Counted from the stretch's first letter, positions 29,554-34,377 are shown. The stretch: 64,000 nucleotides of DNA from Spirochaetota bacterium (GCA_963663865.1 OY760686.1:12069-76068), one strand, 5' to 3'. Notes: generated by a model from the letters alone, not told the origin. Numbers and translations: made by a program.

Positions 29554-30723
29554 TCAATCTGAAACAGCTGCATCGTTTGGTGCAGCTGTTTTTATATTAA
29601 CCCTCATGTTCCCACAACTTCCTTTAATCTGATTCATTCTGTATTCAGACGGCGATTTGCCGATTACTTTTTTGAATGCCCTGTTGAAGGTAGCTTTGGA
29701 GTTGAAGCCTGCAATAAGCGATATTTCCAAAATATTTTCACCGGATCCGCTTTCCATCATAGCAATTGCACGGTCTATTCTTAAACTGTTTATGTAATCG
29801 TAATAACTCATTTTGTACATTCTATTGACCGATTGAGAAAGATTATGACGAGAAACATTGATTCGGGCAGCCACTTCCTCCATGTTAGTTACAGAATCAA
29901 TCAATTCTATTGATTGCTCGAAATAACTCTCCAGCCTGTTGATTATATCAGCAACCTGAACTTCAGAAAGAAAGGACTTTTGATACTTTTCGTTTGAATC
30001 ATTTTTTTCGTTTTCCGGAGTAAGTATTACCTCTTTAATATTTTTGACGGTGTGAGCTAAGTAGTAAAGTATCACAAGAGAAACAAGCTGTACCGACATA
30101 ATTATCATTACCCAATTCTTTACTTGATAATACCTCAATACATAGGCTGCAAATCGTACTACAACAAGATGAAATAAAAAATTTGCGAAAATAGTCATAA
30201 TTACTCGGCCATATTTTTTCACTACATGATTTTTCATAATAATTCGCGAAGACAAAATCAAGTAGATTATCCCTTGGGCAAGAAATCCATTTCTTAGTAA
30301 TCTATATATTTTATTATTAGGATCATAATTATTTTCAAAAAAAACCATATAAAGATTAATCATAAGGACTACGATGCAGGGTATCAGATGAACAATTATT
30401 TTATTAGCTTTTTCATTGAAACCGAGACAGATGTTCTTTACAATTAAATACATGAGTGGGTATATGCAATATATCGGTGAAATAGTGGCTATTGGACATA
30501 CAACCTGTCCGCTGTTGCTGAAAAATATCAAATAGATTAACCGATTAAGGATAGGAATAGTACAAATAAATAAAAGGTAATTTATAGTTATTTTACTAAA
30601 CTTTTCTCTTTTAAGGGACCCCGAATCGTAATATTTGATGGAGAATAATCCCATAGTCATCAATATTAAAGCCGTTGAAACAGTAACCTGAGAATACAAT
30701 CTTTCAAATTCACCAAAAACCAT
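29554..30723 (-). CDS. AraC-family transcriptional regulator with a polytopic membrane N-terminal domain (copy 1)
   Basis: About 230 hydrophobic N-terminal residues with multiple TM segments. C-terminal HTH_18 motif: NLSQSVNRMYKMSYYDYINSLRIDRAIAMM...IAGFNSKATFNRAFKKVIGKSPSEY. The DNA is very AT-rich. Confidence 0.8.
   Translation of the reverse strand: MVFGEFERLYSQVTVSTALILMTMGLFSIKYYDSGSLKREKFSKITINYLLFICTIPILNRLIYLIFFSNSGQVVCPIATISPIYCIYPLMYLIVKNICLGFNEKANKIIVHLIPCIVVLMINLYMVFFENNYDPNNKIYRLLRNGFLAQGIIYLILSSRIIMKNHVVKKYGRVIMTIFANFLFHLVVVRFAAYVLRYYQVKNWVMIIMSVQLVSLVILYYLAHTVKNIKEVILTPENEKNDSNEKYQKSFLSEVQVADIINRLESYFEQSIELIDSVTNMEEVAARINVSRHNLSQSVNRMYKMSYYDYINSLRIDRAIAMMESGSGENILEISLIAGFNSKATFNRAFKKVIGKSPSEYRMNQIKGSCGNMRVNIKTAAPNDAAVSD
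29565..29593 (+). terminator. htpG terminator (overlaps the 3' end of the convergent AraC gene)
   Basis: Stem cagctgca / tgcagctg with an 8-nt loop, followed by ttttt. Confidence 0.7.
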
Positions 30724-30817
30724 AGATACCAGACCAACATAATTTTATAAATAATAATAATTTCTCTCGATATGAGCACATGCTACATCTTATAATCAAG
30801 CCTTACAGCATCAACCG

Positions 30818-32100: not shown

Positions 32101-32112
32101 GATATTTATATT

Positions 32113-34377
32113 TTAGTAAGTAAGGCTTGTGCCATATTCAAAAAGCTGGTTAGCTTCATCGTTGAACAAGTCCTCATAAGCCGCTTCAACATCTTCGTCG
32201 CTTGCTGGAATACAGAACGGAAGCTTGGCTGAAGGCTTGAATCCGTCAGTTCCATATATGAACTCAAGAAGCTGCTCATCATAGATCCCGAACTCAACAA
32301 TAAGAGCATCGATTTTTGATACATCAATGTCAGCATCAAAAACAAAGGATCTTGGTGCAAACACACATAGGATCAGCTTAGCACCTGATTTCTTTGCAGA
32401 AATTGCATCTTTTATCAGCTGTGCTTGTGCTATCGATGCGGCCTGAGTTGAATCGCTGACTAGATATGAATCGGTTCCTGTTGCTTCATTTTCAGCAGCT
32501 GTATAATGTCTCCACTCATCATAGTTGTATGAGTAAACATTTGCCTCAAATGAAAGAGGAACTCCTCCTGCAATACCTGAATACGTGCCATGACGTCCAG
32601 TAACACGTAGAATGATATAATCTGCTTCAGACATGGTTGTCGTAGTCGTGCCAGCAAATGAATCAATCAATCCATCTTCTACTCCATTAAAGTAGACCGT
32701 TCCTGATGTTGCAGATAGAGGTAATACATTTTCATTTTTTACAAGTACAGTTGTTTCTTTCATTATCTGTTTTCTTGCATCTGCATTAGCTGTGATAATA
32801 GCATTTGCAGCAGAAGCATCTCTGTAAGGATTTTCAAAAACACCAAGCTTAAACATCATCTCAAGAACTTTCCCTGCCGGGTAATCCAGATCTGCTTCTG
32901 AAATGAAGTTATGATCGATAGCATTAAGCCACATTGTATAACTTCCATTCCCGACCTGATGTCCGCCTGCCTGCAGATACTTGTATATTAGGTAGCTCTG
33001 ATGTTGAGGTATGGAATAAACCAAGTTACCTCTTCTATCGTAGCCCTCAGTAACTGACCACTCCGTAAAAGCAGGTGCCCCATCAGGAATATCTGTTGGT
33101 CCTGTGTAAGATGGATCAGAAAGATCGGTATCTGCCTCAACCGTTGTCACCCCAAAGTCTGAAAGAAGAAGACCATACGCTGAACTTCCAAGCACACCCC
33201 AGTCAGAGCTTATCACTCCATCCCATTCGCACTCCTCTCGCAAGTAATCCCACATAAGAGTCATCTCGTAACTGGAGGCTACTTCCTCGAATTGTGTATT
33301 AAAAGTTCTTGTTGTTTCATCCCAGTTTGTCATGTAAATGCTGTAGCACGGCATACATCCAAGCGGACCAGCTTCAAATGTTTTCTTGTATGATTCAACA
33401 AAGGCATCAAAATTTCCGCCTTTAAACAAGGCATATCTTCCTGCAGATTTATGGCTATCCATTCCTCCCATATTTGTACCGCCACCTGGGAAGTGTTTAA
33501 GTACTGCAGCTACTCCCGGAACAAGCTGTCCGGACGCACCATTTTCAGTTTGCTGAAGCCCTTGAACATAAGCTTTTGCAAATTTACCAGCTTTTACAGG
33601 ATCAGCTCCGAGTGTGTCATATGAGCGGGCCCATCTGAGTTCACCTATCGGGTCACTCTGCGGTCCAAGCAGCATTCTAAAACCGCATGCTTTATACTCT
33701 TCAGCATGCATACTTGCAATTTCCCTAACCTTGTCTGTCTCATTTTCATCAAGAGCTGCAAGCCCAAGCATGAATGGCCAGTCACCCATTGGTGCCATAT
33801 CATTTTTTTTGGCATACCCTGCATCGGCTCCTGCCGCACTAAAACCTGTACCTGTAGAAGGATCACAGCAGAAAACGAAAGGAATTCCAAGTCCCTGCGA
33901 TTCAACGTATGCCTGAACCTTATTGATATACGTTGTCATATCAGCTGCGGAATAAGCAGTTCCTGGATTACGGAAAAGAGCCACTCTTGCCTGAGAGGTT
34001 GCAAGTGATGTTTTCAAATCATCTGTAATGTCAACATCTGAGATACTACCGGCAAAGCTGGTCTCATAGAGAAGCCCAGCTTTTTGTTCTTTGCTCATTT
34101 TAGCAAGCAGATCTGCCGCCCTTTCTTCAACCGGCAGAGTCCAGTCCTCATAAGCATCAACCTCACCGTTAGCGTTGAGGTCTCTATACTGTTTATCATC
34201 GACTGTCAGAATACTTTTCCCTGAACCGTCAGCGACTTGAACCGAAGGCTGAACATCTTCACCATCGACACAGTAAATTCCTTTACCCTCACAGCTTTTG
34301 TCTTTCTCATCATCTCCGCAAGCCGTAAAGGCAGCAAAGAGAGAGAGACTTAGTAGTAAAACAAGAATTTGTTTCAT
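32113..34377 (-). CDS. Glycoside hydrolase family 3 lipoprotein (beta-glucosidase/xylosidase-like), copy 1
   Basis: Signal peptide with lipobox AAFTAC. GH3 signatures LKHFPGGGTN and the nucleophile region GVISSDWGV. 754 aa. Confidence 0.85.
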   Translation of the reverse strand: MKQILVLLLSLSLFAAFTACGDDEKDKSCEGKGIYCVDGEDVQPSVQVADGSGKSILTVDDKQYRDLNANGEVDAYEDWTLPVEERAADLLAKMSKEQKAGLLYETSFAGSISDVDITDDLKTSLATSQARVALFRNPGTAYSAADMTTYINKVQAYVESQGLGIPFVFCCDPSTGTGFSAAGADAGYAKKNDMAPMGDWPFMLGLAALDENETDKVREIASMHAEEYKACGFRMLLGPQSDPIGELRWARSYDTLGADPVKAGKFAKAYVQGLQQTENGASGQLVPGVAAVLKHFPGGGTNMGGMDSHKSAGRYALFKGGNFDAFVESYKKTFEAGPLGCMPCYSIYMTNWDETTRTFNTQFEEVASSYEMTLMWDYLREECEWDGVISSDWGVLGSSAYGLLLSDFGVTTVEADTDLSDPSYTGPTDIPDGAPAFTEWSVTEGYDRRGNLVYSIPQHQSYLIYKYLQAGGHQVGNGSYTMWLNAIDHNFISEADLDYPAGKVLEMMFKLGVFENPYRDASAANAIITANADARKQIMKETTVLVKNENVLPLSATSGTVYFNGVEDGLIDSFAGTTTTTMSEADYIILRVTGRHGTYSGIAGGVPLSFEANVYSYNYDEWRHYTAAENEATGTDSYLVSDSTQAASIAQAQLIKDAISAKKSGAKLILCVFAPRSFVFDADIDVSKIDALIVEFGIYDEQLLEFIYGTDGFKPSAKLPFCIPASDEDVEAAYEDLFNDEANQLFEYGTSLTY

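Follow-up and report, generated by a model that had tools for sequence, protein, structure and literature searches.

Catalytically dead IS110-type proteins, probable exapted partners of GH3 lipoprotein genes in a Spirochaetota lineage

A 64-kb stretch of DNA from a Spirochaetota bacterium (the window; all coordinates count from its first letter) carries two gene modules in which a lipoprotein-type family-3 glycoside hydrolase (GH3) is encoded beside proteins resembling the recombinases of IS110 insertion sequences (IS) and beside a membrane-embedded regulator of the AraC type (AraC-TM). A preliminary description placed six open reading frames (ORFs) in two such triads, and all six are present at the coordinates it gave, all on the minus strand; an additional IS110-like gene, IS_3 at 49771-50904, brings the window total to three rather than two. 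The genes, together with an element of another IS family that lies among them, are as follows.

29554-30723, minus strand: AraC_1, predicted membrane-embedded one-component regulator of 389 amino acids (aa), from its HTH_18 match and hydropathy
30818-31951, minus strand: IS_1, catalytically dead IS110-type protein, from profiles, alignment and an AlphaFold2 (AF2) model
32113-34377, minus strand: GH3_1, divergent family-3 glycoside hydrolase of 754 aa with the lipoprotein-type signal peptide MKQILVLLLSLSLFAAFTAC, from its Pfam match
42959-44167, minus strand: AraC_2, membrane AraC regulator of module 2, 402 aa, from profiles and hydropathy
44231-45352, minus strand: IS_2, second dead IS110-type protein, 373 aa, 3' of GH3_2, from profiles and alignment
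45552-47975, minus strand: GH3_2, paralogue of GH3_1, 807 aa with a lipoprotein-type signal peptide, from its Pfam match and BLASTP
48406-49719, plus strand: IS3-family insertion sequence of 1314 base pairs (bp), orfA/orfB, with rve/HTH_21 domains
49771-50904, minus strand: IS_3, third dead IS110-type protein, from profiles, alignment and synteny

The gaps in module 1 were first placed at 149 nucleotides (nt) between GH3_1 and IS_1, with a hairpin, and 94 nt between IS_1 and AraC_1, with no terminator-like site, and this layout holds apart from one start codon. The IS_1 ORF as first drawn has 381 aa, but its orthologues begin MRLE/MGFE; the ATG at 31951 is therefore the more likely start codon, giving a protein of 377 aa and a first gap of 161 nt. 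A five-codon upstream ORF, ATGACTCTGAATTGGTAA (31957-31974, minus strand), has a good Shine-Dalgarno sequence and stops 5 nt ahead of this start codon; it is missing from the L002 orthologue and is therefore probably not significant. Module 2 does repeat the order and orientation of the triad, as had been claimed, although not the same spacing: its gaps of 199 and 63 nt resemble those of module 1 without being identical. Identity between the modules is 41% for GH3 (BLASTP), 26% for the IS-like proteins and 31% for AraC (HTH part only), and on their sequences the two triads are old paralogues. IS_3 is 21-27% identical to IS_1 and IS_2. It lies directly 5' of GH3_2 in a related genome (L087), so that module 2 reads IS > GH3 > IS > AraC, and in the window the two genes are separated by the IS3-family insertion.

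GH3_1 and GH3_2 match Pfam Glyco_hydro_3 at 77.5 and 89 bits (cut-off 27), with Glyco_hydro_3_C borderline at 29.4 and 33.4 bits respectively (cut-off 31). GH3_1 keeps the SDW motif, the site of the GH3 nucleophile, and its D392 and W393 are invariant in an alignment of eight paralogues. The two AraC proteins end in an AraC/XylS double helix-turn-helix (HTH_18, 68 and 65 bits; cut-off 33.6), preceded by about 230 N-terminal residues with some six to seven hydrophobic segments by hydropathy and no known Pfam domain.

Are the IS110-like proteins true members of that family? Transposase_20 (Pfam) scores 23.7 and 27.2 bits on the 381-aa and 373-aa ORFs, slightly over its cut-off of 21.3. The NCBIfam IS110 model NF033542 gives 34 and 56 bits against a cut-off of 140 (E 1e-8 to 3e-15), and DEDD_Tnp_IS110 (Pfam) 17-20 bits against a cut-off of 29, with no match for IS_1 at E<=0.01. 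An exhaustive hidden Markov model search of 1.84 billion representative proteins recovers about eight clusters of the clade to which these proteins belong at E<1e-20 (P0003, P0004, P0006-P0011), and ordinary IS110 transposases start at about 1e-17 in the same search; the clade was seen in just a few (three to four) related uncultured genomes. Word-index homology searches with clade proteins returned orthologues alone, a metagenome scan for the clade returned solely ordinary IS110s at 21-27% identity, and a PDB sequence search with a clade-only profile gave no match, IS621 being reached there solely by a profile that included canonical IS110s. The AF2 model of full-length IS_1 (predicted local distance difference test 78.7, predicted template modelling score 0.70) has an N-terminal domain of the RNase-H/RuvC-like order beta-beta-beta-alpha-beta-alpha-beta, a long coiled coil and a helical C-terminal Tnp domain with a helix-hairpin-helix. 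Foldseek against the PDB places IS621 or ISCro4 chains in all of the top 11 positions (best 8wt6, E 7e-10, about 356 columns), followed by the weaker matches TIGR-TasR (E 2.7e-5) and then the box C/D protein Nop5 (3pla). By sequence and fold together, the IS110-like genes are true homologues of IS110/DEDD recombinases, a relationship that had been proposed from the sequence and that the above-cut-off Transposase_20 match and the modelled fold bear out.

The catalytic residues of these enzymes, however, are gone. Eleven clade members were aligned with four canonical IS110s, and the motifs (GLDVHK, MESTG, KTDxxDA, SAGK) were cross-checked on IS621. In all members (11/11) the first Asp of the DEDD set has given way to L, Y, I, V, S, H or N; P0009 alone has kept the Glu (loss in 10/11), and P0011 alone the D3/D4 pair, read there by eye with a one-residue offset. 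The serine of the Tnp domain (SAGK-type motif) is likewise lost in 10/11, IS_3 alone having Ser at the aligned position despite lacking all four DEDD residues. In IS_1, D1 has become L, D3 E, D4 T and the serine V, and the Glu position holds V with an Asp one residue on. Loss of the DEDD residues and of the Tnp serine leaves both active sites dead, and no plausible alternative catalytic set was found among the invariant clade columns. These columns comprise W68, the ELRDLTRxR(E) stretch where the coiled coil begins, a helix-hairpin-helix (IPG..A..E.G, IPG...AENI..E.G) and Y333; the proteins thus retain their fold, their coiled-coil segment for oligomerisation and a DNA/RNA-binding helix-hairpin-helix. 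Among the IS-like proteins, the one encoded in the L168 module (8001-11619; P0011/P0154 type) is least degenerate: it keeps D..D and passes Pfam DEDD_Tnp_IS110 in precomputed matches, and its module is possibly an evolutionary intermediate.

The genes do not behave as mobile elements either. No IS ends, flanking inverted repeats or target duplications were found around the IS-like genes beyond chance-level imperfect repeats and a terminator hairpin, as the preliminary description had reported for the first of them, and no near-identical additional copies were found. Each 90% cluster of the clade occurs on one to three contigs, with one copy per locus, and the IS_1 orthologue, about 80% identical, occupies the same setting (smpB-GH3-IS-AraC-htpG) in a related genome. 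The IS3-family element in module 2, which is outside the system, offers an internal contrast showing how real IS features look in this DNA: its ends carry an inverted repeat of 12 bp, GGTCCTGCACCC, the 3-bp target ATA is duplicated on either side (48403-48405 and 49720-49722), and since L087 has an empty site it is a recent insertion that splits module 2 in the window genome alone. Could the clade nevertheless be an ordinary active IS110 insertion sequence? The Transposase_20 match above cut-off would fit, but there are no DEDD residues, no ends and no bridge RNA found, the copies are single, syntenic and about 80% identical between genomes, and the NCBIfam model scores them at a quarter to a third of its cut-off. 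Catalytic loss, absent ends, synteny and the sub-cut-off NCBIfam score together refute this idea, and its probability is close to nil.

Selection on the IS-like genes can be read from orthologues. The ratio of nonsynonymous to synonymous substitution (dN/dS) is 0.17-0.23 for IS_1 and 0.22 for IS_2, in two independent orthologue pairs, compared with 0.10-0.18 for GH3 and 0.17-0.21 for AraC (AraC_1 0.17). Ten full-length clade ORFs of 363-398 aa stay open in DNA of 30-41% G+C, and intact ORFs occur in eight paralogue groups with mutual identities of 21-33%. A 377-codon frame open at 30% G+C has a probability of about 1e-14 by our own arithmetic, taking some 8% of random codons as stops. The view that selection maintains the IS_1 ORF, first argued from its length in AT-rich DNA, thus gains from both measures. 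The IS-like genes are immobile and under purifying selection.

A functionless relic would be an alternative to selection for a role: an IS110 that once landed next to a GH3 gene would have lost its activity there and been duplicated as GH3 expanded. The lost catalytic residues speak for it, as do fairly fast evolution (paralogues 21-33% identical), the limitation to one lineage and base composition. G+C at third codon positions (GC3) is 0.29-0.41 in triad genes (window and L003-L006), as in other accessory DNA, versus 0.47-0.68 in five adjacent chromosomal genes (0.56-0.68 for htpG, smpB, a Na/H exchanger gene and an EAL gene; 0.47 for a GGDEF gene); this low GC3 marks the modules as compositional islands, accessory DNA. 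A relic would not be expected, however, to leave ten full-length ORFs open despite divergence down to about 21% identity, to show dN/dS near 0.2 in two independent orthologue pairs, or to hold the structural motifs W68, ELRDLTR, IPG..A..E.G and Y333 invariant, and real decay looks different in this lineage, where a degraded clade copy is a fragment (L006 1005-1316). A passenger origin without present function is thus quite improbable.

What the IS-like genes share is their neighbour. Eight modules were recovered, from the window and three ENA metagenome assemblies, with the following gene orders.

M1 (window): GH3 > IS > AraC
M2 (window): IS > GH3 > IS > AraC
L003, L004 and L006a: IS > GH3 > AraC
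L005: IS > GH3 > GH3', with AraC and one more GH3 gene on the opposite strand
L006b: IS > GH3, then an IS remnant and another GH3
L168 (8001-11619): IS > GH3, without AraC; a TetR gene lies further 3'

All ten clade genes examined (10/10) adjoin a co-directional GH3 gene of the same subfamily, in either order, and an AraC-TM gene is present in 7/8 modules. The pairing with GH3 thus recurs throughout these eight paralogous modules of related genomes, though not with the fixed gene order first supposed, IS-like, GH3, AraC being the commonest, nor with AraC as an obligatory member, given its absence from L168. The association belongs to this lineage: at 80 loci with related GH3 genes from other phyla (25-33% identity), an IS-like neighbour was found at 0/80 and AraC gave only sporadic weak matches. 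Among the paralogues of the modules, identity is 33-67% for GH3 and 21-33% for the IS-like and AraC proteins, so the two putative regulators diverge much faster than the enzyme. The whole IS-like > GH3 > AraC triad with about 300 nt of upstream DNA also constitutes a 5070-nt insertion/deletion (indel) between two related genomes, lying between ychF and a conserved hypothetical gene at L006 7704-12773, where L003 has 76 nt instead (3667-3741); no recognisable repeats stand at its junctions. The triad is gained or lost as a unit. PADLOC defence models matched none of GH3_1, IS_1, AraC_1, IS_2 and IS_3.

Traces of exchange are also visible within the modules. A comparison of window positions 31620-34120 with L001, L002 and L168 shows that the body of GH3_1 is 66% identical to its positional orthologue in L001 and 75% (locally 86-88%) to the GH3 of another module (L168). 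Its first 100 or so aa and the DNA 5' of it remain locus-specific and match the positional orthologues at 97-100% identity. Divergence stops within IS_1, where the RuvC-like domain gives way to the coiled coil. This mosaic structure suggests recombination among GH3 paralogues or alleles. It also speaks for a cryptic recombinase, site-specific or Piv-like, that would use a non-canonical active site to exchange GH3 cassettes or, as suggested in the preliminary description, to switch the locus, and the indel of a whole triad could be read in the same way. Yet the DEDD positions have no conserved substitute, the serine is lost and no other plausible catalytic set is conserved; neither inverted nor direct repeats flank GH3, the promoter region or the indel junctions; and the mosaics are explained by homologous recombination of the ordinary kind, among paralogues or alleles. 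With both active sites gone and no flanking inverted repeats, a Piv-like switch has little to work with, and a recombinase of this kind is very improbable.

Four features of the non-coding DNA of the modules stand out.

32064-32100, minus strand: terminator-like hairpin after GH3_1, with a perfect 15-bp stem and a 7-nt loop, followed by TTATTAT
34378-34596, minus strand: non-coding block of 219 nt 5' of GH3_1, from its conservation across three loci
48158-48183, minus strand: 26-nt box GGTATCGTTTTGTAAAATGAGACGAC, candidate shared operator, 183-208 nt 5' of the GH3_2 start
51007-51032, minus strand: second copy of the 26-nt box, 25/26 identical, 103-128 nt 5' of the IS_3 start

A G+C-rich hairpin with a U-rich tail lies 3' of GH3 in all six modules with downstream sequence read, and the module 1 hairpin carries a compensatory G-C to A-T change between orthologues. 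Since such a terminator-like hairpin follows it, GH3 is probably its own transcription unit, and 'operon', the term first applied to the triad with the IS-like gene as its fixed component, is the wrong word.

The 219-nt block is more conserved than any adjoining gene: it is 97-100% identical in three loci, one of which has a different upstream gene, and nucleotide identity across the GH3 body drops to about 60% in one of the three. It contains a palindrome with 11-bp arms, TTCATATTTAT-N6-ATAAATATGAA (34531-34558), three GACAA direct repeats at the helical spacing of 11 and 10 bp (34464-34489), and a TATAAT box about 40 nt 5' of the ATG together with a ribosome-binding site. It folds better than shuffled sequences (z = -3.5) and has no Rfam match. 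The block is probably a dense regulated promoter/operator region, though it may instead have a role as RNA. The 26-nt box of module 2 has the consensus GGTATCGTTTT[G/C]TAAAATGAGACGAC and is conserved at both sites in L087; chance would yield 0 matches, and the window holds no third copy at up to 3 mismatches. Its presence in the upstream regions of both IS_3 and GH3_2 hints at co-regulation.

Does a bridge RNA survive beside the dead proteins? Nine measured intergenic regions 5' of clade genes are all at least 160 nt long, from 161 nt to about 1 kb. The fold z-scores of IS-like upstream regions are +0.8, -1.6 and +1.9, reaching -3.4 solely where the GH3 terminator hairpin is included. Rfam searches of these regions at gathering and E-value thresholds found nothing relevant, and no tandem guide arrays were found in 27000-54000. 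A bridge-RNA covariance model built on the conserved RNAs that precede the closest active IS110 elements recovers the upstream RNAs of other active elements (35 and 18 bits) and gives no match beside dead copies, even with filters off, at a sensitivity to diverged RNAs that is limited; bridge RNAs diverge fast, so this negative is of limited power.

These searches bear on a model in which the dead protein would bind a guide derived from a bridge RNA and encoded in the 160-1000 nt of upstream DNA, find the GH3 promoter and recruit or assist AraC there. The upstream regions of at least 160 nt lie on the side where IS110-type elements encode their bridge RNA; the parts by which IS621 holds its bridge RNA, namely helix-hairpin-helix, coiled coil and RuvC fold, are retained; and the 26-nt box that precedes IS_3 recurs, with orientation unchanged, 5' of GH3_2, which fits a pattern of guide and target. 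Nuclease-dead, transposon-derived RNA-guided transcription factors encoded beside regulators provide precedents (PMC12259090). However, the covariance model finds nothing beside any dead copy, the upstream regions have no consistent structure, no Rfam match and no repeat arrays, sequence sharing within a module occurs in 1/6 modules, and bridge RNAs use short split guides, which a contiguous 26-nt match does not resemble. Tests of limited power having revealed neither a homologue of the bridge RNA nor an upstream RNA of consistent structure, the RNA-guided element of the preliminary description is unlikely. The clade as a full IS110 counterpart of TldR and dCas12f, led by an upstream-encoded RNA to the GH3 promoter together with AraC and keeping its own RNA-protein pair in each module, is likewise rather improbable.

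Of the three mechanisms originally suggested for the IS-like gene, a domesticated DNA- or RNA-binding factor fits best. The IS-like protein is very probably an exapted partner of GH3. The more specific reading, of an exapted, catalytically dead IS110-type protein serving as a nucleic-acid-binding accessory of a GH3 sensing/regulation module, is favoured on balance, while transcriptional or post-transcriptional regulation of the module as its actual role is a tentative assignment. The analysis establishes homology and fold, catalytic loss, purifying selection, immobility, invariant GH3 adjacency and the joint gain or loss of the triad; a regulatory role, exerted on the DNA or RNA of the same module, is an inference. 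In such a scheme, descendants of an IS110-type (bridge) recombinase would have become dedicated partners of a lineage-specific GH3 lipoprotein family, and the IS-like protein would serve as a non-catalytic DNA/RNA-binding subunit of a circuit controlling the adjacent GH3 gene. The membrane AraC one-component protein would sense a glycan signal and act with the IS-like protein at the conserved upstream regulatory region. The fast-diverging IS-like/AraC pair of each duplicated module may then insulate that module from the others.

Several observations weigh against this accessory role. The shared upstream box is found in one module alone (module 2) of the six compared. Since the L168 module has no AraC gene, an obligatory IS-like/AraC partnership is not established. 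The dN/dS of the IS-like genes, about 0.2, is more relaxed than that of housekeeping neighbours (0.03-0.06), and the mosaic tract ending in IS_1 could point to a role in DNA transactions. Adjacency to GH3 could descend from one ancestral insertion copied with GH3, long-term purifying selection being the sole argument against a passive passenger. The clade comes from a narrow uncultured lineage and is tiny (about eight clusters in three to four genomes), which makes co-evolution and covariation tests impossible.

The rest of the window supplies some genomic context. A lone 5S rRNA gene (51516-51632, minus strand, 95 bits) with a promoter-like TTGACA box 5' lies between a GGDEF gene and IS_3, and no 16S or 23S rRNA matches were found across the 64 kb. 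Between the GGDEF gene and this 5S rRNA gene, a segment of about 990 bp (51678-52665), where L087 has 83 nt, carries ORFs for a hydrophobic protein of 139 aa (51705-52124) and a Cys-rich one of 72 aa (52146-52364). A SAM-I riboswitch (14751-14851, plus strand, 89 bits) stands 5' of an alpha/beta-hydrolase gene (14961-16136), possibly a homoserine acyltransferase, and two tRNA genes lie at 18850-18922 and 18944-19016 on the minus strand. The organism is flagellated (fliM, cheD) and has many cyclic di-GMP genes.

How does the clade compare with known systems? With the IS110/IS1111 bridge (seekRNA) recombinases (IS621, 8wt6; ISCro4, 9t56) it shares the order of RuvC-like, coiled-coil and Tnp domains over the full length, the ELRDLTR and IPG...A..I.AEIG motifs and at least 160 nt of non-coding DNA upstream. 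Unlike them it has no DEDD residues, catalytic Ser, ends, target duplication, multiple copies or detectable bridge RNA, and it is syntenic, under purifying selection and always paired with a host GH3 gene. The DEDD invertases Piv and MooV resemble it as IS110-related proteins serving the host at a fixed chromosomal locus, but Piv needs both DEDD and inverted repeats flanking an invertible segment, and the clade loci have neither.

The closest precedents found are, by analogy, Nop5, TldR and dCas12f-sigma. Nop5, Nop56, Nop58 and Prp31 are proposed exaptations of an ancestor like the IS110 recombinase, with the RuvC fold of Nop5 inactivated (Vaysset et al., 10.1101/2024.06.21.599552). The likeness lies in a scaffold without catalytic function, made of an inactivated RuvC/RNase-H-like N-domain, a coiled coil and a helical C-domain; Nop5 (3pla) is among the fold matches. 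These proteins, however, are archaeal or eukaryotic ribonucleoprotein scaffolds working with fibrillarin, L7Ae and C/D guide RNAs, whereas the clade is bacterial, still recognisable by Transposase_20, without such partners and tied to a glycosidase and AraC. TldR (nuclease-dead TnpB) and dCas12f-sigma are nuclease-dead, transposon-derived RNA-guided transcription factors (PMC12259090). Like the clade, they are inactivated transposon-derived enzymes, fixed beside host genes or regulators and under selection, and they may serve as a model for transcription control; they differ in belonging to the TnpB/Cas12 superfamily rather than IS110 and in having demonstrable adjacent guide RNAs, none of which was found for the clade. 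TIGR-Tas differs as well, as the guide-RNA array that accompanies its Nop-domain protein is absent from 27000-54000 and TasR is a weaker fold match.

The modules as a whole recall glycan-utilisation loci that have membrane one-component sensors of the AraC type, with the hybrid two-component systems of AraC output in Bacteroidota as an example. Both place an exported or lipoprotein glycosidase gene beside a membrane-anchored regulator with an AraC HTH, but here there is no SusC/D pair, the sensor has six to seven transmembrane segments and an IS110-derived protein is added. GH3 relatives in other phyla are without both partners, apart from the sporadic weak AraC matches. Literature searches found neither a GH3/IS110-like/AraC module, in keeping with the suggestion that the arrangement had not been described, nor any catalytically dead IS110 derivative from bacteria. 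Bertels et al. 2017 (PMC5581495) was considered as a report of a domesticated IS110 and rejected, IS110 there being just a mobile-element control.

That transposon enzymes can be domesticated as host regulators is established by TnpB/Cas12 (TldR, dCas12f-sigma); the one IS110 case proposed to date is the ancient Nop5 lineage. The clade would add a recent, still recognisable exaptation in which loss of the active site appears stepwise (D..D in P0011, Ser in IS_3). Its defined set of partners, GH3 and usually AraC-TM, and its roughly nine natural replicates per genome make the function of a bridge recombinase after recombination experimentally testable. Should the RNA-guided model prove true, the protein would be a compact programmable DNA binder and a natural transcription factor from a third known family of RNA-guided transposon enzymes; if not, it would still be a new accessory factor of glycan-sensing circuits. 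In either case, annotations that read 'IS110 family transposase' can conceal host genes.

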